Shown: positions 1-53,055 of the stretch, one piece after another | Layout of the letters: each line of letters opens with the position of its first letter | How positions within the stretch are numbered: the stretch's first letter is position 1 | From: Squalus acanthias | Taxonomy: Eukaryota | Length of the DNA: 64,000 nucleotides | NCBI GenBank assembly: GCA_030390025.1 | Contig: CM059432.1 | Coordinates: forward strand, 64,482,001 to 64,546,000 | Reading direction: 5' to 3' | Program-made: the position numbers and the translations under genes | The notes under the pieces: generated by a model | Told to the model about the DNA's origin: nothing | Databases searched by the model: none | Seen by the model: the letters and a program-made list of their open reading frames with translations, nothing else

Positions 1-1176
1 GCTCAGTTAGACGACATAACCAAATACTTTGTGAAATACAATCATTACTGTGCTGCTGTGGCCAAGGAAATGTCATTTGTGGAAACCGACTGCCCAGGGT
101 TGAATATAGGAGATATTTTAATGGACAGGTATTTTGGAGTTTTACTTCATTAATTTTGGGTTTAATGAGAAATTATGCAGAACTTTCTTTAAGGCAACAA
201 AATAAGTGGGTTGAAGACATGATAGACTAAAATGTACATGGACGGTGAAAGGACTAAGATTGATCGGGAGTAACTCCCCTTTCCTGTTTTTTCCATCCAT
301 CAAGGTATTTTGACTCCCAACTGCACAATGTAGCCCATTGATCTGTTTATGTTATAGTATTTTTTCATTTCATTATAATATTGATATACTGTCAGCATTT
401 GTGCAAAAGCCATCAATTTTTCCAAGTGTAAACGGCCTGTGAACTTACAGCATGACAAATTTATTACAGTGCTTTATGTGGTTCTTGGGAGAAAACTATT
501 GCAATTCTAAATCAAAGTAGGCTTTTAAACAAAGGTATTGATCAAATCCTCTAGGTGTACCTATCAAGTAAGATTTACCCCCCAGAACCTTTATTAAGAG
601 TTGTTGTAAACAGTTTTCAGCACTTAGCTATGGAAGTTTAAAGGAGGAGAAAATTCTAGGAGGAATACTTTTTGTTTAAAGTACCCCCCTAATTTGTATT
701 AAAAAAATATACAGTTATGAAAATATGTGTTGTCTTTTAAAAAATGACAAATTATCCTGCCCTGATGGAGATGCGCATTTCAAGGAGAAAGAGCAATGCA
801 CCCTCGAGCAAGTTTGCAATATCTCGGAGCAAATCTAGGTCGATAAAATCCTGGAAACTGTGCTACAAGAGAAGTAGCACCCCAATATCAAGGATCACTC
901 TTAAGATTCTTTTACAATGGTGCTTTTCTTTTGGATTGGATTGTAAGAGAGTGCTGTCCATTTACCAGCTCCCTGCATTCACATTGCTAAAAATGGCTCC
1001 CTTATCCCAATAGCAGAATTGTATTAGAGCCAAAAAATAATACTGTAATAGGATTGGGCGGAGTCAACACGGATTTATGAAAGGGAAATCATGTTTGACA
1101 AACCTGCTCGCTTTCCACATTTGCATTGCTAAAACTGGCTCCCTTATCTCAAAGACAGAATATTGATCCACCTCTT

Positions 1177-2487
1177 TAAGAACATAAGAACATAAGAAAT
1201 AGGAGCAGGAGTAGACCATTTGGCCCTTCGAGCCTGCTCCGCCATTCAATAAGATCATGGCTGATCTTCTACCTCATCTCCACTTTCCTGCACTATCCCC
1301 ATATCTCTTGATGCCCTTAATATTCAAAAATCTATCGATCTCTGTCTTGAATATACTCAATGACTGAGCCTCCACAGTCCTCTGAGGTAGAGAATTCCAA
1401 AAGATTCACCACCCTCTGAGTGAAGAAATTTCTCCTCATCTCAGTCCTAAATGGCCGACCCCTTATTCAGAGACTGTGACCCCTGGTTCTAGACTCCCCA
1501 GCCAGGGAAACATCCTCCCCGCATCTACCCTGTCAAGCCCTGTAAGAATTTTGTATGTTTCAATGAGATCACATCTCATTCTTCTAAACTCTAGAGAATA
1601 TAGGCCTAGTCTACTCAATCTGTCTTCATAGGACAATCCCCCCATAAAGAAACCAGTCTGGTGAACCTTCGTTGCACTCCCTCTATGGCAAGTATATCCT
1701 TCCTTAGGTAAGGAGACCAAAACTGTACACAGTACTCCAGGTGTGGTCTCACCAGGGCCCTATATAATTGCAGTAAGACGTCTTTACTCTTATACTCAAA
1801 TCCTCTTGTAATAGAGGCCAACATACCATTTGCTTTCCTAATTGCTTGCTGTACCTGCATGTTAACTTTAACTTTCAATGATTCGTGTACAAGGACACCC
1901 AGATCCCTCTGAATACCAACATTTCCCAAAATCTCACCATTTAAAAAATATTCTGCTTTTCTATTTTTCCTACCAAAGTGGATAACTTCACATTTCTCCA
2001 CATTATATTCCATTTGCCATGTTCTTGCCCACTCACATAGCCTGTCTATATCCCCTTGAAGTCTCCTTGCATCCTCCTCACAACTTAAATTCCCACCCAG
2101 CTTTGTATCATCAGCAAACTTGGATATTACATTTGGTCCCCTCATCCAAATCATTGATGTAGATTGTGAATAGCTGAGGTCCAAGCACTGATCCTTGCGG
2201 TACCCCACTAGTTGCAGTATGCCAACCCGAAAATGACCCGTTTATTCCTACTCTCTGTTTTCTGTCTGTTAACCAATTCTCAATCCATGCTAGTATATTA
2301 CCTCCAATCCCATGAGCCCTAATTTTGTTTAATAACCTCTTGTGTGGCACCTTATCGAATGCCTTCTGAAAATCCAAATACACTGGTTCCCCCTTATCTA
2401 TTCTGCTAGTTACAACCTCAAAAAACTCTAACAGATTTGTCAAACATGATTTCCCTTTCATAAATGCATGTTGACTCTGCCCAATCC
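1177..2487 (-). mobile_element. CR1 LINE, 5'-truncated, RT C-terminal part plus 3' end with (TTCTTATG)n-type tail
   Basis: ORFs 2111..2461, 1615..2208 and 1463..1720 encode frameshifted CR1 RT ([35 protein letters not shown]); aagaacat repeats at the 3' end. Confidence 0.93.
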
Positions 2488-2949
2488 TAATTATTATTTG
2501 TGGCTCTAATACAATTCTGCTAAATTAGGAGAAGGGCCTTTCCAATGAATATAATTTACAAGAATTTGCAGACACATTTGACAATGTTCTTTAATGTGAT
2601 TTTTAAAGAAAAATGAGGTTCATTGAGCGACTGGCAAATTAGCCGTCTGCATTGAAGCATGGTTTGATGAAGGGTGATTAAATATGGAGAAGGCTTTGTC
2701 TTGAGGATGGTGACAAAAGAAGTTCTGCAGGAATCTTTTTGGGGATCGCAGTTAAAGAACATTGTCAAATGTGTCTGCAAATTTTGTAATTATATTCATT
2801 GGAAAGGCCCTTCTCCTGATTTAAATATTTCCTCAAAGAATTATTGGGGCCCGATTTTCCTCCTCCCGCTCCACCTGAAGTGCATTCCCTCGATACAATG
2901 TGAACCCGCCTATATTTTCAGGATCAGACATTAGCATAGACCCAATGTA

Positions 2950-3409
2950 CCACGGATAATGAAGCGGTCCGTGCCCGCATGCAGCAAGACACCATCTAGG
3001 ACAAAGCAGCCCACTTGATTAGCACCCCATCCACCACCTTAAACATTCCACCACTGGTGCACCGTGTCTGCAGTGTGTACCATCTGCAAGATGCACTGCA
3101 GCAACTTGCTAAGGCTTCTTCAACTGTACTTCCCAAATGCACGACTTCTACTACCTAGAAGGACAAGAACAGCGGGCGCATAGGAACACCATCACCTCCA
3201 AGTTCCCCACCAAGTCACACACCATCCTGATCATTGTTCCTTCATCGTCGCTGGTTCAAAATACTGGAACTCCCTCCTTAACAGCACTGTGGGAGTACCT
3301 TCACCACACGGACTGCAGTGGTTCAAGAAGGTGGCTCACCACCTCCTTCTCAAGGGAAATTACGGATGGGCAATAAATGTGGGCCTTGCCAGCGATGCCC
3401 ACATCCTGT
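2950..3409 (+). mobile_element. LINE family B (CR1/L2-group non-LTR element) 3' fragment with an internal deletion
   Basis: Homologous to 41763-42866 and to the reverse complement of 30999-31800; ends with gggcaataaatg...gatgcccacatcc. Confidence 0.85.
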
Positions 3410-4307
3410 AAAGTTGCTGCAGTGCATCTTGTAGATGGTACACACTGCAGCCACGGTACGCCGGTGGTGGAGGGAGTAAATGTTTATGGTGGTAGATGGG
3501 GTGCCAATCAAGCGGGCTGCTTTGTCCTGGATGGTGTCGAGCTTCTTGAGTGTTGTTGGAGCTGCACTCATCCAAGCAAGTGGAGAGTATTCCATCACAC
3601 TCCTGACTTGTGCCTTGTAGATGGTGGAAAGGCTTTGGGGAGTCAGGAGGTGAGACACTCACCACAGAATACCCAGCCTCTGACCCACTCTTGTTGCCAA
3701 AGAACTTATGTGGCTGGGCCAGTTAAGTTTCTGGTCAATGGTGACTCCCAGGATGTTGATGGTGGCAGATTTATCAATGGTAATGCCATTGAATGTCAAG
3801 GGGATGTGGTTAGACTTTCTCTTGTTGGAGATGGTCATTTCCTGGCCCTTATAAGGCGCGAATGTTACTTGTCACTTATCAGCCCAAGCCTGAATGTTGT
3901 CCAGGTCTTTCTGCATGTGGACATGAACAGCTTCATTATCTGAGGAGTTGGGAATGGAACTGAGCACTGTGCAATCATCAGCGAACATCCCCACTTCTGA
4001 CCTTATGATGGAGGGAAGAACGTTAATGAAGCAGATGAAAATGGTAGGACCTAGGACACTGCCCTGAGGAACTCCTGCAGCGAGGCACTAGGGCTGTGTG
4101 ATTGGCCTTCAACAACCACAGCTATCTTCCTTCGTGCTAGGTATGACTCCAGTCAGTGAAAAGTTATCCCCCTGATTCCCATTGACTTCAATTTTATTAG
4201 GACTCCTTGATGCCACACTCGGTCAAATGCTGCCTTGATGTCAAGGGCAGTCACTGTCACCTCACCTCTGGAATTCTGCTCTTTTGCCCATGTTTGGACC
4301 AAGGCTG
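3410..4307 (-). mobile_element. LINE family B, RT part of the element interrupted by the CR1 at 4308-8475
   Basis: Encodes ALDIKAAFDRVWH and MEYSPLAW...QDKAARLIG; colinear with 31300-32180. Confidence 0.9.
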
Positions 4308-4540
4308 TAAGAACATAAGAACATAAGAAATAGGAGCAGGAGTAGGCTAATTGGCCCCTCGAGCCTGCTCCGCCATTCAATAAGATCATGGCTGATCTGA
4401 TCCTAACCGCCAATCTACTATCACAGAACCATCTCCTGAACCTAACAGAATTGGACACACAAAATAGGAGCAGGATCAGGCTACACGGTCCCTGGGCCCG
4501 CTACGCTACCCACAGGGCCATGACCGATCTGAACCTAGAC

Positions 4541-7340
4541 TCATGTCCAAATTCCTGCCCGCTCCCCGTAACCCGTAATTCCCTTTACTTCTAGGAAACT
4601 GTCTATTTCTGTTTTAAATTTATGTAATGATGTAGCTTCTACAGCTTTTTGGGGCAGCATATTCCATGGACCTACCACCCTCTGAGTGAAGTAGTTCATT
4701 CTCATCTCATTTTTGAAAGTGCAGCCCCTTATTCTAAGACTATGCCCCTAGTTCTAGTTTCACCCATCATCGGGAACATCCTCCCGGCATCCACCCGATC
4801 CAACCCCTTCACAACCTTATATGTTTCAATAAGATCGCCTCTCATTCTTCTGAACTCCAATGAGTAGAGTCCCAATCTACCCAACCTCTCCTCATATGTC
4901 CATCCCCTCATCTCCGGGATTAACTGAGTGAACCTTCTTTGTACTGCCTCGAGAGCAAGTATGTCTTTTCTTAAGTATGGACACCAAAACTGTATGCAGT
5001 ATTCCAGGTGCGGTCTCACCAATACCTTGTACAACTGAAGCAATACCTCCCTATTTTTATATTCTATCCCCTAGCAATGAAAGCCAACATTCCATTGGCC
5101 TTCTTAATCACTTGCTGCACCTGCATACTAACCTTTTGAGTTTCATGCACCAGGAGCCCCAGATCCCTTTGTACTTCAGTACTTTCCAGTTTCTTGCCAT
5201 TAAGATAATAACTTGCTCTACTATTTTTCCTGCCAAAGTGCATAACCTCACACTTTCCAGTATTGTATTCCATCTGCCAAATCTCTGCCCACTTACTTAG
5301 CCTGTCTATGTCCCCTTGCAGATTTTTTATGTCCTCCTCACTCACTACTTTCCCTCCCATCTTAGTATCATCTGCAAACTTTGATATGTTACACTCGGTC
5401 CCCTCCTCCAAATCGTTAATATAGATTGTAAAGAGTTGGGAACCCAGCAGTGACCCCTGCGGAACACCACTAGTTACTGATTGCCAGTCTGAGAATGAAC
5501 CATTTATCCCAACTCTCTGCCTTCTGTTAGATAGCCAATCCTCTATCCATGCCAGAATATTACCCCCAATCCCGTGATTTTTTATCTTAAGCAATAATGT
5601 TTTGTGTGGCACCTTGTCAAATGCCTTTTGGAAGTCTAAATACACTACGTCCACTGGTTCCCCTTTATCCACCCTGTATGTTACTTCCTCAAAGAACTCC
5701 AGCAAATTTGTCAAACATGACTTCCCCTTCATAAAACCATGCTGACTTTGTCCTATTAAATTATGATTATCCAAATGTCCCGTTACTGTCTCCTTAATAA
5801 TGGACTCCAAAATTTTACCGACCACAGATGTTAGGCTAACCGGTCTATAGTTTCCAGCCTTCTGTCTACTGCCCTTTTTAAATAAGGGTGTTACATTAGC
5901 AGTTTTCCAGTCTGCTGGGATCTTTGCTGAGTCCAGGGAGTTTTGGAAAATTATTACCAATGCATCCACAATCCCTACCGTCACTTCCCTCAAGACCTTA
6001 GGATGTAAGCTATCAGGTCCAGGTGATTTATCCGCCTTGAGTCCCATTATTTTACCGAGTACCACTTCCTTAGTGATTTTGATCGTGTTTAGCTCCTCCC
6101 CCCCTATAGCCCCCTGTTTGTCCAGTGTTGGGATATTCTTAGTGTCCTCTACTGTAAAGACTGATACAAAATATTCATTCAGTGTATTTGCCATCTCCAT
6201 ATTTCCCACCATTAATTTCTCGGTCTCATCCTCTAAGGGACCAACATTTACTTTAGCCACCCTTTTTCTGTTTATATAACTATAAAAACCCTTACTATCT
6301 GTTTTTATATTTTTTGCTAATTTACTTTCATAATCTATCTTCCCTTTCTTAATCAATCTTTTTGTTATTTTTTGCTGTCTTTTAAAGTTTTCCAAATCCT
6401 CTATCCACCCACTAGATTTGGCTACCTTATAAGCCCTTGTTTTTAGTTGAATACTATCCTTAATTTCTTTAGTTAGCCACGGATGACTGTCTTTTCTTTT
6501 ACACCCTTTTCTTCTCAGTGGAATATATATTTTTTGGAAGTTGTAAAATAACTCCTTAAATGTACACCACTGATCATGTATCGTCTTACCCTTTAATCTA
6601 TTTTCCCAATCCACTCTACTCAATTCCGCTCGCATACCTTCATAGTCTCCTTTATTCAAGCTTAGCACGCTTGTTTGAGATCCAACCTTCTCACCCTCTA
6701 ATTGAATATGGAATTCAACCATGTTATGGTTACTCATTCTAAGGGGATCCTTTACTAGGACATTTTTAATTAATCCTGTCTCGTTACACAGGACCAGATC
6801 TAAGGTTGCTTGCCCCCTGGTCGGTTCAGTTACATACTGCTCAAGAAACCCATCCCTAATACACTCAATTAACTCATCCTCAAGGCAGCCCTGCCCAATT
6901 TGATTTGTCCAATTAATATGATAGTTAAAATCCCCCATAATTATAGATGTTCCCTTATTACAAGCCTCAACTATTTCCTGATTGATACTCCGTCCAACAG
7001 AGTTGCAACTGTTCGGAGGCCTATAGACTACGCCCACTAGTGTTTTTTTCCCCTTATTATTCCTTATCTCCACCCAAACTGTTTCATTATCCTGATCTTT
7101 TGACCCAATATCATTTCTCTGTATTACAGTGATTCCTTCCTTTATTAACATAGCCACCCCACCTCCCCTTCCTTCCTGCCTGTCCTTCCTGATCGTTAAA
7201 TAACCTGGTATGTTTAATTCCCAGGCATTGTCACCCTGCAGCCATGTTTCTGTAATAGCCACAAGATCATACCCATATGTAGTTATTTGTGCCATTAACT
7301 CATCTATTTTGTTACGAATGCTACGTGCATTCAGATAGAG
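4541..7340 (-). pseudogene. CR1 ORF2 (APE endonuclease + reverse transcriptase), frameshifted near 5070 and 4746
   Basis: LYLNARSIRNK, ITETW, YRPP, GDFN (EN); KSPGPD, NYRPVSLTS, DFQKAFD, GVPQGS, FADD (RT); 743-aa open stretch at 5064..7295. Confidence 0.93.
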
Positions 7341-7526
7341 ATTTCAAATATGTTTTGTGACACTTAGTTCCTGCTTTTGCCCTTTTTATTACTTTACCTT
7401 TTACTCCATACCTTCTGCCCCTTTCTGACACACTCTGGTTTTTAATTTCCCCACTGCTACCTAAGTCTATGACCTTCTCTGTTGTCATTTTTATTATTTG
7501 CTCTCTAGGAATCTCCCCCCGACTAG

Positions 7527-8471
7527 TTAATTTAAAGCCCTCTCTACCGCCCTAGTTATATGATCCGCCAGGACTCTAGTCCCAGCACTGGCCAAGTGAA
7601 GCCCGTCCCAACGGAACAGCTCCCTCCTGCCCCAGTACTGGTGCCAGTGTCCCAGGAAGCAAAACCCATTTCTCCCACACCAGTCTTTGAGCCACTCATT
7701 TAACTCTCTAATTTTATTTGTCCTAGCCAAATTCGCTCGTGGCTCAGGTAATAATCCAGAGATTATTACCCTTGAGGTTCTGTTTTTCAATTTGACCTCT
7801 AGCTGCTCATACTCCTTTAACAGAAGCGGCTTCCTTGTCCTATCTACGTCATTTGTACCAACATGGACCACGACAACTGGATCCACCCCCTCCCACTGCA
7901 AGTTTCTTTCCAGCCCAGAGGAGATGTCCTTAACCCTGGCACCGGGCAGGCAACACAGCCTACGGGACTCTCGCTCTCGGCTGCAGAGAACTCTATCTAT
8001 CCCCCTAATAATACTATCCCCTACCACTACAACATTTCTATTTACTCCCCCCTCTTGAATGGCCCCCCGTTCCACGGTGCTGTGGCCAGGTTGCTCATCC
8101 TCCCTGCAGTCCCTGCTCCTGTCCCCACAGGGAGTAAGAACCTCGAACCTGTTGGACAAGAGCAAGGGATGCAGCTCCTCCAACACTACCTCCTGGATCC
8201 CCATACCTGCCTCACTCGTAGTCACACCATCCTGTCCCTGACCATGGGCTACATCTGAATTAATTAACTTCATAGGTGTGACCACCTCCTGAAACACAGA
8301 GTCCAGGTACTTCTCCCCCTCCCTGATGTGTCGCCGTGTCTGAAGCTCAGACTCCAGCTCGTCAACACGGAGCTGGAGTTCCTGTAGCAGCAGACACTTG
8401 TCACAGATGTAATCACCGTGAGCCTCAATGGGGTCCACTGGCTCCCACATCTCGCAACAGTAACACATCAC
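7527..8471 (-). CDS. CR1 ORF1 protein: Cys-rich zinc-finger-like N-terminus, coiled coil, SGNH/GDSL esterase-like domain
   Basis: 314-aa open frame: CYCCEMW...YICDKC, LQELQLRVDELESEL, VVVGDSII, PGAR, VHVGTND, DGLHL. Confidence 0.88.
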   Translation of the reverse strand: MMCYCCEMWEPVDPIEAHGDYICDKCLLLQELQLRVDELESELQTRRHIREGEKYLDSVFQEVVTPMKLINSDVAHGQGQDGVTTSEAGMGIQEVVLEELHPLLLSNRFEVLTPCGDRSRDCREDEQPGHSTVERGAIQEGGVNRNVVVVGDSIIRGIDRVLCSRERESRRLCCLPGARVKDISSGLERNLQWEGVDPVVVVHVGTNDVDRTRKPLLLKEYEQLEVKLKNRTSRVIISGLLPEPRANLARTNKIRELNEWLKDWCGRNGFCFLGHWHQYWGRRELFRWDGLHLASAGTRVLADHITRAVERALN

Positions 8472-8475
8472 CTGC

Positions 8476-10467
8476 TAATGAGGTCTGTAGCCAAGTGGTC
8501 CTGGCAGAACCCAAACTGAGCATCGCTGAGCAGGTTATTGGTGAGTAAGTGCCACTTGATAACACTGTCAATGACACCTTCCATCACTTTGCTGATGATT
8601 GAGAAGAGACTGATGGGGCGGTAATTGGCTGGATTGGATTTGTCTTGCTCTTCGGGGACAGGACATACCTAGACAATTTTCCTCTTTGTCGAGTAGATGC
8701 CAGTGTTTAGCTGTACTGGAATAGCTTGCTAGAGGCATGGCTAGTTCTGGAGCACAAGTCTTCTGCACGACAGCCGGGATGTTGTCTGGGCCCATAGACT
8801 TTGCTGTATCCAGTGCGCTCAGCCGTTTCTTGATATCACATGGAGTGAATCGAATTGGCTGAAGACTGGTTTCTGTGATGTAGGGACCTCAGGAGGAGGC
8901 CGATATTGATCATCCACTCGGCATTTCTGGCTGAAGATGATTGTAAATGCTTCATCCTTGTCTTTTGCACTCACGTGCTGGGCTCCACCATCATTGAGGA
9001 TGGGGATATTCATGGAGCCTCCTCCTCCTGTTAGTTGTTTAATTGTCCACCACCATTCACGACTGGATGTGGCAGGACTGCAGAGCTTTGATCTGATCTG
9101 TTGGTTGTGTGAGCGCTTAGCTCTGACTGTAGCATACTGCTTCCGTTGTTTAGCATGCATGCAGTCCTGTGTTGTAGCTTCACCAGGTTGGCACCTCATT
9201 TTTAAGTACGCCTGGTGCTGCTCCTGGCATGCTCTTCTGCACTCCTCATTGAACCAGGGTTGGTCCCCTGGCTTGATGGTAATGGTAGAGTGAGGAATAT
9301 GTCGGACCATGATGTCACAGATTGTGATGGAATACAATTCTGCTGCTGCTGATGGCCCACAGCGCCTCAGGATGTCTAGTCATGAGCTGTTAGGTCTGTC
9401 TGAATAATCTCATTTAGCATGGTGGTCATGCCACATAACATGACAGCAGGCGACCTCTGTGTGAAGATGTGACTTCATCTCCACAAGACTGTGCGGTGGT
9501 CACTGCTACCAATACTATATTGGACGGGTGCATCTGCGACTCGTAGATCGGTGAGGCCGAGGTCAAGTAGGTTTTTCCCTCGTGTTGGTTCTCTCACCAC
9601 CTGCCACAGGCCCAGACTGGCCGCTATGTACTTCAGGACTCGGCCAGCTCGGTCAGTATTGTTGCTACTGAGCCACTCTTGGTGATGAACATTGAGTTTC
9701 CCTACCCAGAGTATTTTCTGTGCCCTTGCTACCCTCAGTGCTTCTTCCAAGTGGTGTTCAACATGGAGGAGTACTGATTCATCAGCTGAGGGAGGGCGGT
9801 AGGTGGTAATCAGCAGGAGGTTTCCTTGCTCATGTTTGACCTGATGCCATGAGACTTCATGGTGTCTGGAGTCAATCCCTCCAGGCTGTATACCCCTGTG
9901 CTGCCATCTCTGCTGGCCCAGTCCTGCTGGTGTAACAGGACATACCCAGGGATGGTGATGGAGGAGTCTGGGACTTTGGCTGACAGGTATGATTCTGTGT
10001 ATATGACTATGTCAGGCTGTTGCTTGACTAGTCTGTGGGACAGCTCTCCCAATTTTGGCACAAGTCCCCAGATGTTAGTGAGGAGGACTTTGCAGGGTCG
10101 ACTAGGGTGGGTGTGCCTTTGTCGTGTCTGAATCTGATGCTGGGTGGTCCGTCCAGTTTTATTCTTATTATTGTTTTTTGTAGCGGTTCGTTACAACTGT
10201 GGGTTTTGAGTCACATATAGGCCAGACCAGGTAAGGGCGGCAGATTTCCTTCCCTAAAGACATTAGTGAACCAGATGGGTTTTTATGACAATCAAGTAGT
10301 TTCATGGTCACTATTACTGATACCAGCTTTTTATTCCAGATTTATTTCATTAATTGAATTTGAATACCGCAACTGCCGTGGTGGGATTTGAATTAATGCC
10401 TCCGGATCATTAGTCCAGGCCTCTGGATTACTAGTCCAGTAACATAACCATTATGCTGCCGTACCCC
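8476..10467 (-). mobile_element. LINE family B 5' part: tRNA-derived head, short leader, endonuclease and linker region; no ORF1
   Basis: Frameshifted peptides LLTNIWGLVPKLGEL, DIVIYTESYL, SSDHRTV, PWFNEECRRA, MGPDNIP; colinear with 32180-33552. Confidence 0.88.
10375..10467 (-). promoter_or_regulatory. tRNA-derived internal Pol III promoter (A box CAGCATAATGG, decayed B box ATTCAAATCC) at the 5' end of the family-B LINE
   Basis: Minus strand GGGGTACGGCAGCATAATGGTTATGTTA-CTGGA CTAGTAA TCCAG-AGGC-CTGGA CTAATGA TCCGG-...TTCAAATCCC; second copy at 52960-53055 has consensus boxes. Confidence 0.75.
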
Positions 10468-14739: not shown

Positions 14740-16659
14740 GTATGTGATTCTGTTCAGTTTTGACTGATTCAGCATACATTTTTAATTTAGTATACAACTG
14801 AAAATATGCAGTTAATATATTTTATTGAGTATGATAAGATATTACATTGATGCATGCAGTACAATGTGAATTGTAAGTTACGGCTTGAATTTTTATATTT
14901 TATCTTCTTTAGTCATGATGAAGGAACAGCTTAGTTACCTTTTGACAAGTCCAGACTAAATTTATTTCAGGTTTCTTATGCAGATGTAAATTGAAGCAAG
15001 ACTCTTATTTATTTTAAGCAAAGCGCAATAGCAATTACCAAGATCACCATAACAGAAATTTCAATTCAAACAAATTTTACTCTTCGATAAACATATTTAA
15101 TAATTTAAGATTAAATAGTGCTAATAATCATTTAGCTAATTATTATTGGTCCTGTTCATGCTGCTGTAGTCACAAATATTGAAAAACTAGGTTCAGCTAG
15201 AATGCAATATCCATTGAACTCCCTTGCTTCACTAACACAGGTACTGCATAACCTTTGCTCATAAAAGCCTGCTGCAATGCTTCAGTGTCTATTTGGCTCT
15301 TTGTGAATAACAACCACTTGCTTTATTTTTCTAAAAGGAGAAATTCAAAATGTTAGAGCCTTCATCGTTATGAGCCCAATCCATATGTTGTCTCAAAAAT
15401 GTACCATTTGAAAAGATCCTCCAGTTGGTGCACAGATTTAATTCTGTTTAAATCCCTCACACAGTTTGTAATTAAAAGATGGGTCACCAGGATATGCAGA
15501 GTCCTCTATTTATCTCTTCATTTAGTGGTGACTACATGTAATCAATAGATAATTAACTAGGAACAATATTCTCTTGGCTAGCTATGTCTATCAGTAATTA
15601 TTACAGAACACAGATGGATAAAATTTGAATCTGCCATGATACTGTTTCTAATTGATGGGTCAATATGTATATATTGATATTTCCATGGTTAGGCTCTCAC
15701 CATCACTGGCTACTTACAATTGATAGATAAAATGCTGTCATCCGAGTTATTACGTTTACTTAGTGGTTCCTATAATAAGTAGGAATCGGGAAGGGTCCCC
15801 ACCTAACACTATTGTTGGAGTACTGTCACCACAAGACTGAAGTATTTCAAGGAGAAGGCCCACCATCACCTTCTCTGGGCAAGTAGGGATGGGCAATAAA
15901 TGCTGGCCTTGCCAGCAATGCACACATTCCAAGAATGATTTTTTAAAATGGATTCAGCTGCTTGTAATTCCCATTTTTTCTTGTTTAAGCTGTTACTCCC
16001 AGAGTACAGGTAGTTCCATGCTGCATGGAAGATAGCCTTTTTTTTTAGTTAGAAATGAAATAGAATCTCTTATGCCTCCATTCTTTATGCTGTTGCTTCT
16101 TAATACAGTCATACTTGTGGTCATTAAGTATCTTCAGAAATAACAACATGTATCCAAAAATTGTCATCCTAAATGCAACACAATATTAACCCACTCTATC
16201 AGAAAGAAGTCAAAGCACAATTAGAATAATGTGACTGATAAACCAGAAATTAATTAGATTTGGTCAAAAGCTCATAAGCAGAAATGTATATTGGGTAATT
16301 ATGCTAAGACAGGACTTTCAATTCTTTGGTTTATTGGCTGCTCTTTAGAATTTATTTGACATACTGGCAGAAAAAATAAAACAGTTATCAATCAGTAATC
16401 TTTCCCTCCTGCCAAAAAAATCCTTTTGAGTTAACTATTTCTAAATATAATGTTATTTGTTTGTACCTTTGGTGAAGTTGTAGTTATGGTAAGTGACACC
16501 AATGCTAGGAAAGGAAGTACTTCTGCACTTTTTGCACCTACTGACAGTATCAAGAATCCCAAGTCAGGTATAATACAAACTTTACGCAGAATAGAGCTCC
16601 TTTTTTCTCCTCCAATAATGTACCTTCAATTAAAAAAAAACACACTGCAAATAAAATCA

Positions 16660-30998: not shown

Positions 30999-33552
30999 GC
31001 GTCGCAGGCAAGGCCAGCATTTATTGCCCATCTCTAATTGCCCTTGAGAAGGTGGTGGTGAGCCGCCTTCTTGAACCACTGCAGTCCGTGTGGTGAAGGT
31101 ACGCCCACAGTGCTGTTAGGGAGAGAGTTCCAGGATTTTGACCCAGTGATGATGAAGGATCGGTGATATTATTCAAAGTCAGGATGGTGTGTGACTTGGA
31201 GGGGAACTTGGAGTGGTGGTGTTCCCATGCATCTGCTGCCCTTGTCCTTCTAGGTGGTAGAGGTTGTGGATTTAGGAGGTGCTGCCGAAGAAGCCTTGGT
31301 GAGTTGCTGTAGTGCATCTTGTAGATGGTACACACTGCAGCTACGGTACGCCGGTGGTGGAGGGAGTGAATGTTTAAGGTGGTGGATGGGGTGCCAATCA
31401 AGTGGGCTGCTTTGTCCTGGATGGTGTCGAGCTTCTTGAGTGTTGTTGGAGCTGTGGAGAGTATTCCATCACACTTTTTTGTGCCTTGTAGATGGTAGAA
31501 AGGCTTTGGAGAGTCAGGAGGTGAGACACTCGCCACAGAATGCCCAACCTCTGACCTGTTCTTGTAGCCACAGTATTTATGTGGCTGTTCCAGTTAAGTT
31601 TCTTGTCAATGGTGACCCCCCCCATGATGTTGATGGTGTGGGATTCGACGATGGTAATGCCGTTGAATGTCAAGAGGCGGAGGTTAGACTCTCTCTTGTT
31701 GGAGATAGTCATTGCCTGGCACTTGTGTGGCACGAATGTTACTTGCCTCTTATCAGCCCAAGCCTGAATGTCGTCCAGGTCTTGCTGCATGGGGGCATAG
31801 ACTGCTTCATTATCTGAGGAGTTGTGAATGGCACTGAACACTGTGCAATCATCAGCGAACATCCCCACTTCTGACCTTATGATGGAGGGAAGGTCATTGA
31901 TGAAGCAGTTGAAGATAGTTGGGCCTAGGACACTGCCCTGAGGAACTCCTGCAGTGATGTTCTGGGATGTGATGATTGGCCTCCAACAGCCACAACCATC
32001 TATCTTTGTGCTAGGTATGCCTCCAACCAGTGGAGAGTTTGACCCCTGATTCCTATTGACTTCAATTTTACTCTTGCTCCTTGATGCCACACTCAGTCAA
32101 ATGCTGCCTTGATGTCAAGGGCAGTCACTCTCACCTCACCTCTGGAATTCAGCTCTTTAGTCCATGTTTGGACCAAAGCTGTAATGAGGTCTGGAGCCAA
32201 GTGGTCCTGGCAGACCTAAACTTTGCATCGGTGAGCAGATTATTGGTGAATAAGTGCCGCTTGATAGCACTGTTGATGACACCTTCCATCACTTTACTGA
32301 TGATTGAGAGTAGACTGATGGGGCGGTAATTGGCCGGATTGGATTTGTCCTGCTTGTTGTGGACAGGACATACCTGGGCAGTTTTCCACATTGATGGGTA
32401 GATGCCAGTGTTGTAGCTGTACTGGAACAGCTTGCTAGAGGCACGGCTAGTTCCGGAGCACAAGTCTTCAGCACGATAGCCGGGATGTTGTCGGGGCCCA
32501 TACCCTTTGCTGTATCCAGTGTGCTCAGATGTTTCTTGATAGCACGTGGAGTGAATTGAATTGAAGCCGCCTTCCCCATGAAAATCCACCCCTCTGTCTC
32601 TGTCTATCTTTCGGTCGCTCTCTCACTCCTAATGGAAATGTCGTGCTTCTAGCCCTTTAAGCTGCAGCAACCTTTGAACAGCTGCAGTTAGAACCGATTC
32701 CTCCCCCCCCCACCCCCGTCCCACCCCCTCCCAGCAATATAGATGGTGGGGCCCTCAGGAGGAGGCCGAGATGGATCATCCACTCGGCACTACTGGATGA
32801 AGATGGTTGCAAACACTTCAGCCTTGTCTTTTGCACTCACGTGCTGAGCTCCTCCATCTTTGAGGATGTGGATGTTCATGGAGCCTCTAACAAATTAGTT
32901 GTTTAATTGTCCACCACCATTCACGACTGGATGTGGCAGAACTGCCGAACTTTAATCTGGTTGTGGAATCACTTAGCCCTGTCTATAGCATGCTGCTTCT
33001 GCTGTTTAGCATGCATGTAGTCCTGTGTTACAGCTTCCCCAAGTTGGCAGCTCATTTTTAGGTACGCCTGGTGCTGCTCCTGGCATGCTCTTCTACACTC
33101 CTTATTGAACCAGGGTTGGTCCCCTGGCTTGATGTTAATGGTAGAGTAACGGACATGCCAGGCCATGAGGTTACAGATTGTGGTGGAATACAGTTCTGTT
33201 GCTGCTGATGGCCCAAAGTGCCTCATGGATGCCCAGTTTTGAACTGCTAGATCTATTCTGAATTTACCCCATTTAGCATGGTGGTAAGTGGCATACAACA
33301 CGATGGAGGGTGTCCTCAATGTGAAGACGGGACTTCATCTCCACAAGATCTGTGCAGTGGTCACTGCTACCAATATTGTCATGGACAGGTGCTTCTGCCA
33401 CAGGTAAATTGGTGAGGATGAGATCAAGTAGGTTTTTCCCCTCGTGTTGGTTCTCTCACCACCTGTCGCAGGCCCAGTCTGGTAGCTGTGTCCTTCAGGA
33501 CTCGGCCAGCTCGGTCAGTAGTGATGCCTCTGAGCCACTCTTGGTGATGGAC
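30999..33552 (-). mobile_element. LINE family B, 5'-truncated within the endonuclease region, carrying a templated insertion at 32564-32742
   Basis: [45 protein letters not shown] in the ORF track; 3' tail as in the other copies. Confidence 0.92.
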
Positions 33553-34821
33553 ACCCCCCCAACCGATGATCCTGTGGCCGGCCCAATCATCTGGTGGTCA
33601 GCCCCGATCTCTTGCTTGTCTCCCCCGTCAACCCACCCCGGTCCCTCAACTGCCCTGATTCTTGCTTCCCCCCTGCACCCCCCCCCCCCTCCCTGGTCTC
33701 TCGATGGGTCCCCGATCTCTTGCTTCCACCTCCCCCCGGTCCTCTGGAGGCCGGCACTGGCCCCCACCCGTTCCCTCCCTCCCTCCTCCGTGCAGCCTAG
33801 TGCCGCAGGCCTACCCACTCACAGCCAACCAGCCTCTCCATCTGGCTGGTTGCAGGTGGGAAACAGAGGCTTCAGATGCAAGTCAGGCCCTGCCATTAAC
33901 CGGCAGGGCCTGTGAGAAACCCTGTTCTCCCGGAATTCCCATCTGCATCAGAGCCCCTCCCACCCCCAAGCTGCCTTCCCCATGAAAATCCACCCCTCTG
34001 TCTCTGTCTATCTTTCGGTCGCTCTCTCTCTCCTAATGGAAACGCTGTGCTTCTAGCCCTTTAAGCTGCAGCAACCTTTGAACAGCTGCAGTTAGAACCG
34101 ATTCCTCCCCCACAACCCCCGCCCACCCCCGCCCCACCCCCTCCCAGCAATATAGTATTAATCAGAGCAAGATTGCCTCTGTAAACCCACCCTAAATATT
34201 AAATTAGCCCTCCCCCCACACAAGGAAAATACAGTCAGATGCTGGTGGGATCACATGGATGGATGGAAATCCTTTATTGCCATTTTTCTGATGGGCCCAG
34301 GAAAATCCAGGCCAGTGACCCACCAGCTTGCGAGCAACATCAGGACTTACCCTCTGTGGCTGTTTTTAGCTGTTTATGCCATTTCTCCGGGGGTCCGCGA
34401 AAATTATAGGCATATATATTAAAATGTTTAGTTCAATATTGAATGCAGCCCAGCAGTGCTTCTCTCAAGTGGCCATTCATTCTGTGTGAATCTCGGTAGT
34501 CAGAAACAGTGGCCTATCCAATTGTGTGGCATTAAATCCAAGCTCAGTTCTATCTTTACATGTATTGCACCACTTCCACTATGGGTCACTGGATACCAAT
34601 TGAAAGCAGGAGTCTTGGGTGATTTTTATTTGCTCCTCTTTAGCCTGGGACAGCTGAGAATAAATGCAGAGGTACAATCCCAGCAAAGATTAGCTAATTT
34701 AGATGGGTTGTTTCAAGGCAAGGTTGACTCTACAACCCACAAACAAATTTACAAGCCTGGCTCATGAGTGTAACAAGAATCATATCCAATGCTTCTGTAT
34801 CTAGTATATCATAAAGAAAGG

Positions 34822-36789: not shown

Positions 36790-38324
36790 GTATTGTAGTG
36801 TGAAACTGGTGCCAGACCAGACAAATCTGTGTTAATGGTGTTTAAAAAAAATTAAGGTGCATTTATATTTTTTGAGGCACTGGGATATTTTCATCAAATT
36901 GAAAATAAGAGGGAGTAACTGTCCACTTCACTCAGCAGAGTAAGAAAAACGAGGTGAACTGTTGAACTGTCCCAAGAGAACATTCACCTGAAAAGTGCAT
37001 ATGTTATTCAGTTAAATACTTAGGCATCCCCCAGAGAAGTGATTCCAATGCCTCCGTTTTCAGCTGGAGAACGGGCTATTGAGATCCCCTAGGGAGCATG
37101 CCACATAGATTCCCCCTGTGCACTGTAAATCTAAAATCTATCCAGGTTGGCTTCTGCAAATTAGACCGCTGACATGACACAAATTGATGAAATTATGCGG
37201 AGAAAGTATATTAAAAAAACTACATAATAAATAGGTTTTGCCCCATGTGTATTGGGAAGGCAGTTTTTCACAATGGAACTTTGACCAATAAAAGACAATT
37301 ATTCACGTGAAATTCTATGAAGAGCTGTCAGAGATAGATGTTCACCCCAGGTGTCTGGACTGGATTTTTTTTATTCATTCGTGAGATGTGAGCATCGTTG
37401 GCAAGGCCAGCATTTATTGCCCATCCCTAATTGCCCTTGAGAAGGTGGTGGTGAGCCGCCGATTCAGATCCAGGTCAAGTCCCAGAGGAGATCATGCTCT
37501 GGCTAGGGAAGAGGCAGATTGAACTCCAAAGTTAAAGTGACCTGAGTTGCACTTGCTGACATGCCCATCTTTAATCTATGGAATTCCTGACCTCTGGCAC
37601 AGTTTGGATATTTTAGTTTTATTGGTGTTGAAAAATCATAAATATGCAAAAACTAGGAAGCAATCCACATTGGAGAATGTTGATGAACATGCTCTGATTT
37701 TGTACACAGTGATATATATCTTCAATCCACGCATCACCAGTTACTTTCAAGACCAGACATTTCTTTGTAACATTTCATGGACACTGCGATGCTGAAAATT
37801 TTCCAGTGTTACAGTAATAATAGTACTGAGCTGTCAGGAATAGCTTTATTTCTATAATATCAATGTTATATCAATAAAATATATCCTTTAAAATTCATAA
37901 ATGAAGGCAAAATAGTTCAAGAAAGTTTACTTCTGCCTTAACTTGTCTTTCCCGTTTCCCTGTTTTCCCACTTCCTCTTTTATTAAACTCTTATTTTAAT
38001 TTTAATTTTCTGACTAATAATCTATAGGAGTGATTCCGTTTCCCCAACACTCCCATTGAGGAGTGATGCTTACAGCAAGTGCACCAATTAATCAACTCCC
38101 AGAACACTGAAGTGTTTCATGGTTTCATGATAGGAACAACTAGTCAAACCTATGGCACCTTTTACCAACCAGCATAATAAGGGCCCAATTATCTCATTGG
38201 TAGCCCAAGATACTATGCAAAATTAAAATAAAGGAGAGGGTTGTTGAAGGTAGTGCAGCTGATGTTGTGCATATTGACTTTCAATAGGCGTATAATAATG
38301 AGCCACAAAATAAAAGGACTTCAA

Positions 38325-41762: not shown

Positions 41763-42866
41763 GCAGCATTTGACCAAGTGTGGCATCAAGGAGCCCTAGT
41801 AAAATTGAAGTCAATGGGAATCAGGGGGAAAACTCCAAATGAAGATGGTTGTGGTTGTTGGATGTCAATCATCTCAGCCCCAGGACATCACTGCAGGGCA
41901 GTGTCCTAGACCCAACCATCTTCAGCTGCTTCATCAATGACCTTCCCTCATCATAACGTCAGAAGTGGGGATGTTCGCTGATGATTGCACAGTGTTCAGT
42001 TCCATTCGCAACTCCTCAGATAATGAAGCAGTCCGTGCCCGCATGCAGTGAGACCTGGACGACATTCAGGCTTGGGCTGATAAGCGGCAAGTAACATTCA
42101 CGCCACACAAGTGCCAGGCAATGACTATCTCCAACAAGTGAGAGTCTAACCACCACCCCTTGACATTCAATGGCATTACCATCGCCGACTCCCCCACCAT
42201 CAACATCCTGGGGGGGGTCACCATTGACCAGAAACTTAACTGGACCAGCCACATCAATACTGTGGCAACAAGAGCGGGTCAGAGGCTGGGTATTCTGCAG
42301 TGAGTGTCTCACCTCCTGACTCCCCAAAGCCTTTCCACCATCTACAAGGCACAAATCAGGAGTATGATGGAATAATCTCCACTTGCGTGGATGAGTGCAG
42401 CTCCAACAACACTCAAGAAGCTCGACACCATCCAGGTCAAAGCAGTTCGCTTGATTGGCATCCCATCCACTACTTTAAACATTCACTCCCTCCACCACCG
42501 GCACACCGTGGCTGCAGTGTGTACCATCTACAAGATGCACTGCAGCAACTCGCCATGGCTTCTTTGATAGCACCTCCCAAACCTGCGACCTCTACTACCT
42601 AGAAGGACAAGGACAGCAGACGAATTGGAACACCAACACCTGCAAGTTCCTCTCCAAGTTACACACCATCCTGACTTGGAAATATATTGCCGTTCCTTCA
42701 TTGTCTATGGGTCAAAATCCTGGAACTCCCTGTGGGAGTACCTTCACCACACAGATTGCAGCGGTTCAAGAAGGTGGCTCACCACCACCTTCTCAAGGGC
42801 AAATAGGGATAGGCAATAAATGCTGGCCTTGTCAGCGACGCACACATCCCAGGAGCGAATTAAAAA
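41763..42866 (+). mobile_element. LINE family B 3' part (RT and tail), sense orientation ~1 kb after the SNTG1 stop codon
   Basis: Colinear with the reverse complement of 30999-32110; in-frame stops. Confidence 0.9.
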
Positions 42867-44699
42867 ATTACATAATCTGATTCCACCATATAAGTGGGCA
42901 ACATTAGAGACATTTTTGTATGTGTTCTGTTAATCCTCTAAGCATGTGAGGGTTGATTTCACGTATCATTACACATGCTGAGGTACCTCTCACTTTACAT
43001 TGGAAAATCACAGCAGTAGACCGGTACCTCACCAAATGCCACCACTTGGAAAATCTACCCTGTGTTGTGCCAAAAAGAGACATTTCAAATTATTTTGCAT
43101 TTTTTGTTCTGCCAGTATTAGCTGTTTCTTTGAATTATTTGTTTTATGTGTCCCTCTTGTTCCACAACTATGAATACTTGATCCAGTAAATGCCTACAGT
43201 ATTTTGTTTTAAAGAGATCAGCTGAATCATCTGCTTGGATCTCCTTTGATCTGTTACCATTGACTATCATATTTTCCATGTCATGTATATTTTTTACTTT
43301 CAGTCAATTCTGAGGTAATTTGAGGCCAAAGCCTAAAATATACAAGCTAGATGTTAAAATTAGATATTATAACTCTCTCTAAAGATATCTCTACAATCTT
43401 TATTACACTATCGCAGACCGGCTCCACTCGTGTGAGATAAACATTTTTACTTTCATCTCTTAAGATCACTGGGGGAATCGTTTGCTAGTCACCAACCTAC
43501 AGAGCTGTGTTTGGTCCAAATTGCTTCCTTCAGACAGCAGCTGCAATCTCTCATCTTTCCATTTCATTTTATTATGTGCCACACAACAACTCAAGTGTTT
43601 CCACTATTTGAAAATGCTTCAAACTGAGCCTCCCATCATGTCTTTCCACCTTCATCTAATTACTGCAGTGTCATAGAATTCACTTACTCTAAAAGTATCT
43701 GCAGTTGTTTTTGTGAAAACTCAGCAACATTTTCACTGCTTTCCTGGGCAGTTCGTGCTAAATCAAATTTATCTGTTATGCCTTCACTGCCACTGGGCTA
43801 ATCTTATGAACCACAAGAGATGTATGAGATCATTGTACTTGACATTTTATACCCAAAAGGGATTAAACTATCATGTCTATTAGGTTTATTGGTCCAGAAT
43901 GTTGATAATTTCACAAGGATGTTGGTCTGAAATGCTCTTTTATTCTTAGAGAATATTGTGTAACTTTTGTTCCCATTTTCTTTTGCGTATTCATGCTTGG
44001 CTATTTAACAGAAGAGCACTCCTTTGTCAACAGTTATTTCTGTTCTGTTATTGAATTCACAGTGCTCGGGTAGCATTGAATGAACCTAATATAATAGTTA
44101 CATTGTAAAGTCCATTGCAGTTAATGGACACATGAGCGCGTTAATCAATAATCTGAGTGAAGCATTAACTCTATTGGCTTTCAGAACACAAACTGACTTT
44201 GGTGCTGTACTGATTTTAGGTCAGAAGAGTAGGAACCTTTTAAGCTATTTTCAGAAGAATGAATCTAAATTCATTTACAATGGAATAGGATTATGATATT
44301 TTTCCTGATCTTGTAAATCTCAGTATTTTTCAATAGTGTCACATGTCAGGTCTTCATGCCAGGTTCAGGCTATCTGAAAAAGTCAGACGGAGCAGACTTG
44401 GAATGTTAAACTGATGCTGTGATTGTATATAGAGGATATTCATTAGTACATTTCTAGAGTGCACTATAGACACCCAAACAATGATTTTATACTAAACTAG
44501 TTCAGCTTGGCCCAAGCTTGCTTAGATATTCTGCTTTTTATTTTTTTTTAAATTAGAGCTACAGACCTGAATCATCCGAAAACACAAGTGACACCTACAG
44601 AAAATGAATCAACCTCCTGTGGCATTGCACATAAGGAGTCAAGACCAAGAGCACATTTCAGCTCCAGCAGGGTTAGAAGATGACAATTGGACCAAGGTG

Positions 44700-52583: not shown

Positions 52584-53055
52584 TATTTATTCATTCACAG
52601 GATGTGGGCGTCACTGGCAAGGCCAGCATTTATTGCCCATCCTTAATTGCCCTTGAGAAGGTGATGATGAGCCGCCTTCTTGAACCGCTGCAGTCCATGT
52701 GGTGAAGGTTCTCCCACAGTGCTGACTTTGTCGTATACAACTGAATAGCTTTCTCAGCCTTTTCAGAGGGCAGTTAAGAGTCAACCACACTGGAGTCACA
52801 TATAGGCCAGACCAGGTAAGGACGGCAGATTTCCTTCCCTAAAGGACATTAGTGAACCAGATGGGTTTTATCTGACAATCTGGTAGTTTCATGCTCACTA
52901 ATACTAGCTTTCTTAATTCTAAATTTATTTAATTAACTGAATTTAAATTCACCCAGCAGCCATGGTGGGATTTGAACTCCCGTTTCATGGATCATTAGTT
53001 CAGGTCTAGCATGGATTACTAGTCCAGTAACATAACCACTATGCTAGCATACCCC
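52584..53055 (-). mobile_element. SINE-like non-autonomous derivative of LINE family B: tRNA-derived head fused to the family-B 3' tail
   Basis: 52730-53055 matches 10185-10467; 52600-52724 matches 30999-31115; A box TAGCATAGTGG (53036-53046), B box GTTCAAATCC (52968-52977). Confidence 0.88.

Follow-up and report, generated by a model that had tools for sequence, protein, structure and literature searches.

The window, by which we mean the whole 64,000-nt stretch of the Squalus acanthias genome (3.7 Gb) analysed here, holds two minus-strand pieces of one copy of a LINE family, termed family B, split by a nested CR1 element (Table 1). As a reference we used the family majority, the column-majority of 17 near-full copies, which is about 3315 nt long and from which the copies diverge by 3-7%. 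Window positions 10466-8476 (minus strand) align to family positions 2-2086, and positions 4310-3412 (minus strand) to 2084-2983. Because the two pieces abut in family coordinates with a 3-nt overlap (2084-2086) around the nested CR1, we regard them as a single split element, of which about 330 nt are missing at the 3' end relative to the majority. The original prediction of a LINE of about 2.9 kb, interrupted by a CR1 and without its 3' tail, is borne out, as are the tRNA-like start with A box, B box and anticodon-like arms and the APE endonuclease, starting at 10088, downstream of a leader. That leader had been estimated at about 280 nt, but the window version has lost 52 nt and 12 nt, the non-coding leader of the family measures about 240 nt, and at the family level the last ~105 nt before the endonuclease motif are coding in the endonuclease frame. 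The 52-nt deletion takes out an anticodon-like hairpin (family 304-320) that is present in other copies.

The endonuclease is matched by PF14529 in the window copy and the reverse transcriptase (RT) by PF00078 on another family copy (31398-32096), giving the order endonuclease, then RT, in one frame. The nested CR1 encodes an esterase ORF1 (PF13472) and an endonuclease-RT ORF2. It is young, with its ORF1 esterase open, an open stretch of 759 aa in ORF2 and 95% identity to a copy in locus L088. Other 5'-truncated copies or 3' fragments of the LINE family lie at 30999-33553 (minus), 41763-42867 (plus), 2940-3408 (plus), 37365-37460 (minus) and 15796-15938 (plus), and the fragment at 2940-3408 adjoins the broken 3' end of the window LINE copy, tail-to-tail. 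A short head-plus-tail derivative of the family occupies 52586-53054 (minus), its 3' piece being longer than in most.

Table 1. Features of the LINE copy and of the element nested in it, in window coordinates.
Feature	Position	Strand	Basis or remark
5' piece of the LINE copy (family ~1-2086)	8476..10467	-	87% to family majority
3' piece of the LINE copy, covering the RT region (family ~2084-2983)	3410..4310	-	92% to family majority; RT motifs in translation
tRNA-derived head, type-2 Pol III promoter-like	10375..10467	-	Sharp 5' end common to copies
A box, first base decayed in window copy	10448..10458	-	Comparison with family majority
Anticodon-like arm 1 of the head	10423..10439	-	Rfam tRNA alignment
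Duplicated anticodon-like arm (20-nt duplication, not in older subfamily)	10402..10418	-	Subfamily comparison
B box, first base decayed in window copy	10385..10393	-	Comparison with family majority
Non-coding leader; 52-nt deletion at 10197/10196 (family ~273-324)	10185..10374	-	Majority alignment
Ala codon (GCT) in frame at family 337, with which the hairpin loop is predicted to pair	10182..10184	-	Sequence comparison
Basic, Arg-rich N-terminal extension in the endonuclease frame; 12 nt lost in window copy	10089..10181	-	
Single ORF, decayed by frameshifts and stops, from the APE endonuclease through a linker into RT	8476..10088	-	PF14529 on 9475-10011
Nested younger canonical CR1, outside the family	4311..8475	-	ORF1 esterase 7527-8474, ORF2 5064-7343

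The head in the young and older subfamilies

Copies elsewhere show that the head is the fixed 5' end of the family in both its young and its older subfamily. Among 29 other copies picked by their endonuclease, 16 reach head position 8 or less (three of them split by later insertions), and the remaining 13 have lost their 5' end at various points between positions 47 and 368 and are flanked by unrelated sequence; no second common 5' end was seen among the 29. When loci were picked by the RT instead, 29 of 39 end before the endonuclease start. The 10 that reach it comprise four with a contiguous full head, two with a full head split by other repeats, two with a partial head and two truncated within the leader, and nothing besides the head is common to them upstream. 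The upstream flanks of 18 full-head copies have a mean identity of 26% over 60 nt, compared with 84% inside the head. The original prediction had named headless full-length copies, or an upstream ORF1 or another 5' UTR, as the observations that would speak against it; neither an ORF1 nor an alternative 5' UTR was found in the 29 endonuclease-anchored and 39 RT-anchored loci, and the head is common to the full-length copies. Putative hidden ORF1s in loci L066 and L087 were rejected as later insertions of other repeats. The common head, the unrelated flanks and the lack of an ORF1 or alternative 5' UTR together support, from the comparison of copies, a SINE-headed LINE of autonomous type. The older subfamily (five copies, 71-76% identical) has a single anticodon arm and the same order of head, leader and endonuclease, and the architecture is real, family-wide and old. 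In contigs from four runs of other organisms, whose RNA status is guessed and which attest presence only, coverage increases at base 1 of the head, and for three of these runs contigs bridging the leader into the endonuclease were among those listed.

Of 29 other loci picked by the head, 13 continue into the LINE, and 16 are short elements of ~430 nt that consist of the first ~329 nt (98%) and the last ~100 nt (97%) of the LINE. Their junctions are of several kinds, lying at about 329 in young elements and at about 299 in 21 of the 30 older loci. Such differing junctions fit deletion products, suggesting that the short elements arose by repeated internal deletions of the LINE. The family has an A-rich 3' tail, a fixed 3' end and no LTR. 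None of 18 copies had a target-site duplication at both ends, the only repeats being five chance 6-8-mers away from the tail; such duplications are often absent from CR1-group elements.

The RT is 32% identical to that of the nested CR1 and, in a midpoint-rooted tree built without named references, clusters apart from it, in a group (85/99) together with single-ORF proteins of invertebrate type. These relatives, amphioxus and brittle-star matches among them, are closest by identity (44-47% in the RT), their sisterhood being unresolved in the tree. Among named proteins, those of the shark Heptranchias perlo are closest to the ORF, with 71-80% identity. About 260 residues of the LINE ORF are contained in a gene model for a shark aldo-keto reductase (P0007), either through mis-annotation or through exonisation. 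Unlike the nested CR1, the family departs from the strict CR1 layout of ORF1 plus ORF2, and as a coding 3.3-kb element it lies outside the SINE2 size class (100-700 bp, non-coding), into which its ~430-nt derivatives fall. The best reading of these comparisons is a single-ORF, CR1-group LINE of sharks that would replicate as one 3.3-kb unit with a tRNA-derived head.

Promoter-like head, T-runs and the polymerase

The head is of SINE2 type, and its A and B boxes fit the consensus in the family majority, from which those of the window copy each depart at the first base. ARAGORN called no tRNA in the window, and the Rfam tRNA model gave 15.4 bits (E 2.6) on the window head and 24-25 bits on older-subfamily copies, all below the cut-off of 29. 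Compared by local alignment with 20 distinct tRNA genes of the genome, which do not cover all isotypes, the head matched tRNA-Leu best (z 5.5). Folding of four heads revealed no cloverleaf (z -1.3 to 0.6). A separate tRNA-headed SINE family (L236) has a similar T-arm. A long tandem array with a ~2-kb period (L240-L264; G000:C1, from about 100.83 Mb) matches a tRNA T-arm motif; ARAGORN calls tRNA-Leu in its loci, and similar ~1.8-kb tRNA arrays occur on C29, C2208 and C1484. Among metagenome relatives, ARAGORN found no tRNA in the 42 loci scanned out of 80, and these relatives are too distant (25-47%) to inform on the nearest group.

Oligo-T terminates Pol III transcription (PMC4494074). The family majority contains 7 runs of three or more T where 20.0 are expected, with none of 3000 shuffles as low, and its runs of A, C and G are normal by the same comparison. 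With protein and codon usage kept, the ORF has 5 T-runs compared with 11.1 expected (P 0.0065); the junction effect is weaker (P 0.03) once CpG contexts are removed. Four-T runs are missing from the majority altogether, an absence that alone is not significant (P 0.20 with dinucleotides kept, 0.13 with codons kept). All 46 related ORFs contain them, and their three-T ratio is at least 0.79 compared with 0.31 in the shark family, a comparison that sets the shark majority sequence against single copies of the relatives. The Phe content of the ORF is below that of all 90 full-length relatives. A T-poor RTE control from the same genome shows no depletion (10 T-runs against 10.3 expected) and has only one four-T run; the nested CR1 has 10. 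The T-run depletion is thus specific to the family, as transcription by Pol III would need, and we consider it fairly probable, judging from these sequence patterns, that the family uses an internal Pol III promoter and that its body has been selected against T-runs.

Transcription by Pol II is the strongest competing explanation, although we consider it unlikely. The captured SINE head would then serve as a Pol II 5' UTR, or the RNA would come from host Pol II read-through; in either case it would be capped, and entry into the frame would come from re-initiation independent of AUG or from the hairpin working on capped RNA. LINEs are normally Pol II transcripts, according to two reviews (PMC10886601, PMC5786205), and the family has an A tail and, near its 3' end, a poly(A)-signal hexamer, which is compatible with Pol II too. 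A length of 3.3 kb is also long for Pol III, whose processivity restricts such elements to about 1.3 kb in the account of Kojima 2024 (PMC10886601), and the lack of four-T runs is weak evidence alone. Against Pol II stand the family-specific three-T depletion and the conservation of the head, in which the subfamilies agree best around the A box (40 of 46 bases) and the B box (24 of 26), compared with 28 of 48 just downstream. Furthermore, the eight AUGs in the first 330 nt of the family majority would hinder scanning, and no upstream ORF is conserved between the subfamilies.

An AUG-less frame and an anticodon-like hairpin

The family majority has a single frame at 331-3249 (973 codons), preceded by a stop at 328. 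The original prediction had noticed no in-frame AUG just upstream of the endonuclease in this decayed copy. The absence stands, and decay is not its cause, as the majority itself has no in-frame ATG before position 1189, past the endonuclease domain. The first 286 codons of the frame are thus without AUG, and all but 2 of 90 relatives have an internal Met within the first 260 residues. The common non-CpG variants at 370-456 do not alter the protein read in the endonuclease frame. Counted from the Ala codon at 337, 24 of 36 codons keep their amino acid between the old and young subfamilies, nine of them through a synonymous change, largely in Arg codons; the old-subfamily majority, derived from five decayed copies, has two stops in the extension, on CpG-type codons. 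Because the variants are synonymous in this frame and the amino acids are kept between subfamilies, these substitution patterns indicate that the basic N-terminal extension is translated, with neither an AUG nor a strong near-cognate start conserved. Conservation as protein extends upstream as far as the Ala codon, which precedes the endonuclease by about 36 codons. Apart from a weak AAG, the near-cognate codons are not conserved, and an ACG start was rejected, since four of five old copies have ACA where the young majority has ACG.

A hairpin at family 304-320 has a 4-5-bp stem and a 7-nt loop with a central AGC, the anticodon of the GCU at 337. It lies 28 nt upstream of this codon, across an A-rich, variable spacer. 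Between the old and young subfamilies, 29 of 30 bases are the same over 300-329 and 5 of 5 over the codon region 337-341, as against 4 of 7 in the spacer, and a G-C to G-U wobble variant in 10 of 46 copies leaves the stem intact. Of control windows, 0.5-1.9% contain the motif in its strict form and 32-49% in a relaxed version. As the motif was spotted post hoc and its relaxed version is common, the hairpin is weak evidence taken alone. The leader folds no better than shuffles (z 0.3 and -1.1) and has one long stem with one compensatory pair, as arises by chance in 9%. In the older head (L265-L294) the loop of the anticodon arm has the same seven bases as the hairpin loop, so that the hairpin may derive from a tRNA arm.

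The related LINE proteins provide a comparison beyond the sharks. The start sites of their gene calls are scattered, and five clusters read far upstream. All five of these clusters, which have long in-frame extensions, carry Ala or Val seven residues ahead of a conserved PR, and their upstream peptides back-translate to the shark hairpin motif at 28-30 nt, in three frame offsets. Such a fit was obtained for 7% of 1200 random peptides and at 1 of 30 neighbouring offsets. In the Val cluster the middle bases of loop and codon, both set by amino acids, have changed together, consistent with a compensatory change. Overall, back-translation of predicted proteins fits the motif in five of six testable invertebrate-type relatives; the sixth, a seemingly spliced Amphiura gene model, has Ala at the same place but does not fit, nor do two more distant proteins (P0209 and P0213). 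The fitting clusters are 52-68% identical to each other and are thus not independent evidence. No further close relative with a long extension was found in a profile search of 1.84 billion representatives, no longer protein with an endonuclease query, and no DNA of the nearest relatives in scans of viral and bacterial contigs. About 140 nt upstream of the Ala codon, back-translation of the P0140 cluster allows a B box, judged by eye and without a null, which is a weak hint of tRNA heads in relatives too.

The shark leader resembles pseudoknot I (PKI) of the dicistrovirus intergenic-region (IGR, type 6) IRESs, for which an anticodon-like stem-loop, a variable A-rich spacer, an in-frame triplet and a non-AUG start have been described (PMC3517527, PMC12221177). 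Ala codons dominate at IGR IRES starts, and three pairs suffice in the PKI of CrPV chimeras (PMC3517527). In the viruses, PKI is formed by five pairs and follows PKII/PKIII, which take a simplified form in type 6c (PMC12221177), whereas the shark leader has three pairs, and neither PKII/PKIII nor an Rfam IRES match was found in it. Unlike in the dicistrovirus IGR IRES, the paired triplet is the Ala codon itself. Without PKII/PKIII or an Rfam match, we read the hairpin as a PKI-like start signal, which it probably is, and not as a named type 6 IRES. The comparisons lean slightly towards a loop that pairs with the Ala codon as a tRNA mimic and sets the frame without cap or initiator tRNA.

It is also conceivable, though quite improbable, that a Pol III-driven RNA starts translation in another way, by a near-cognate codon or a different type of IRES, and that the match of loop and codon reflects descent and chance. 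This would be in keeping with a pairing of only 3 bp, the lack of any compensatory change in the loop-codon pair among shark copies, the frequency of the relaxed motif and a Val case that is a single inferred event. However, the weak AAG is the only near-cognate codon conserved, and the motif fits at the homologous residue in three different frame offsets. Much less probable again is entry from an AUG-initiated upstream ORF (family 275, 76 codons, +1 frame) by a -1 frameshift. This ORF is open and overlaps the endonuclease start in the young majority, and where a stop interrupts it, in one sub-lineage, a new ATG in the same frame follows further downstream. We rejected it because a 1-nt indel and an in-frame stop break it in the older subfamily; moreover, the frequent variants at 370-456 are not synonymous in its frame, and no classical slippery heptamer was seen. 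Least probable of all, and largely refuted, is the view that the long copies with a head are no self-copying unit but formed repeatedly as chimeras, by template switching between a SINE RNA and an ordinary LINE. The short element with the same first 329 nt is abundant, but all long copies have one colinear join, none of 68 loci contains a LINE with another 5' end, the head has diverged together with the ORF in both subfamilies, and the short elements have several junctions.

Proposed mechanism, known systems and meaning

The translation of an uncapped RNA was a problem raised by the original prediction, for which the tRNA mimic is a candidate mechanism. TFIIIC would bind the A and B boxes of the head, and Pol III, reading through a body selected against T-runs, would make an uncapped RNA. 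The anticodon-like loop would pair with the in-frame Ala codon and mimic the tRNA-mRNA pair, as PKI of the dicistrovirus IGR IRESs does. The mimic would set the frame, the endonuclease-RT protein would be made without cap or initiator tRNA, and this protein would copy its own RNA by target-primed reverse transcription, which is established for APE LINEs. Since an uncapped Pol III RNA and a cap-free start explain each other, we tentatively rank this pair first, ahead of Pol II transcription and of Pol III with another start. More speculatively, the family may represent a retrotransposon that avoids Pol II, cap and AUG alike, with a PKI-like mimic common to a marine-invertebrate/amphioxus LINE lineage and with SINEs as its deletion products.

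Ingi/Vingi elements are also tRNA-headed and belong to clades other than that of the shark family. A LINE with a tRNA-like sequence is likewise described for RTE-1_DAn and relatives (PMC5786205), again in another clade. Zenon resembles the shark family in having one endonuclease-RT ORF and no ORF1, and its internally deleted derivative Persaeus is built of LINE 5' and 3' ends like the short shark elements, but their 5' end is described as being without tRNA homology or a Pol III promoter (PMC6740152). Bov-tA, SINE2-1_ACar and SINE2_Gav combine a tRNA head, a LINE 5' part and a LINE tail like the ~430-nt shark elements (PMC5786205, PMC4494074); in these accounts the head was added to a non-coding derivative, whereas in the shark family the full coding LINE itself has it. 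As origins of such bipartite SINE2 derivatives, one paper lists RTE, Ingi, Vingi and R2 and no others (PMC5786205). HE1/HER1, CmiSINE and SacSINE1 with L2-2_CM are tRNA-headed SINEs with a LINE tail in cartilaginous fishes (PMC3747384, PMC5499810); their descriptions set them apart as V, CORE or Deu types with only the tail in common with a LINE. Identity with HER1 was dropped as unsupported. Searches of the literature brought up no report on the shark family, on coding LINEs driven by Pol III or on PKI-like starts in LINEs; because subscription journals, Repbase and Dfam lay outside their scope, the family may already be named in Repbase or Dfam. What is newly seen, at the level of sequence, is an AUG-less frame conserved from an Ala codon together with an upstream anticodon-like hairpin.

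Reviews divide retroposons by polymerase, with coding LINEs transcribed by Pol II and non-coding SINEs by Pol III (PMC10886601, PMC5786205). A tRNA-headed unit of 3.3 kb that is also coding does not fit this split, and it gives a direct route for the origin of SINEs. The translation start of LINE ORF2 proteins is an open question to which the ~340-nt shark leader speaks, and Luke et al. 2013 wrote that ORF2 would have to be reconsidered if non-LTR elements contained IGR-type IRESs (PMC3894237). A PKI-like leader in a LINE would also bear on the unknown origin of factorless IRESs.
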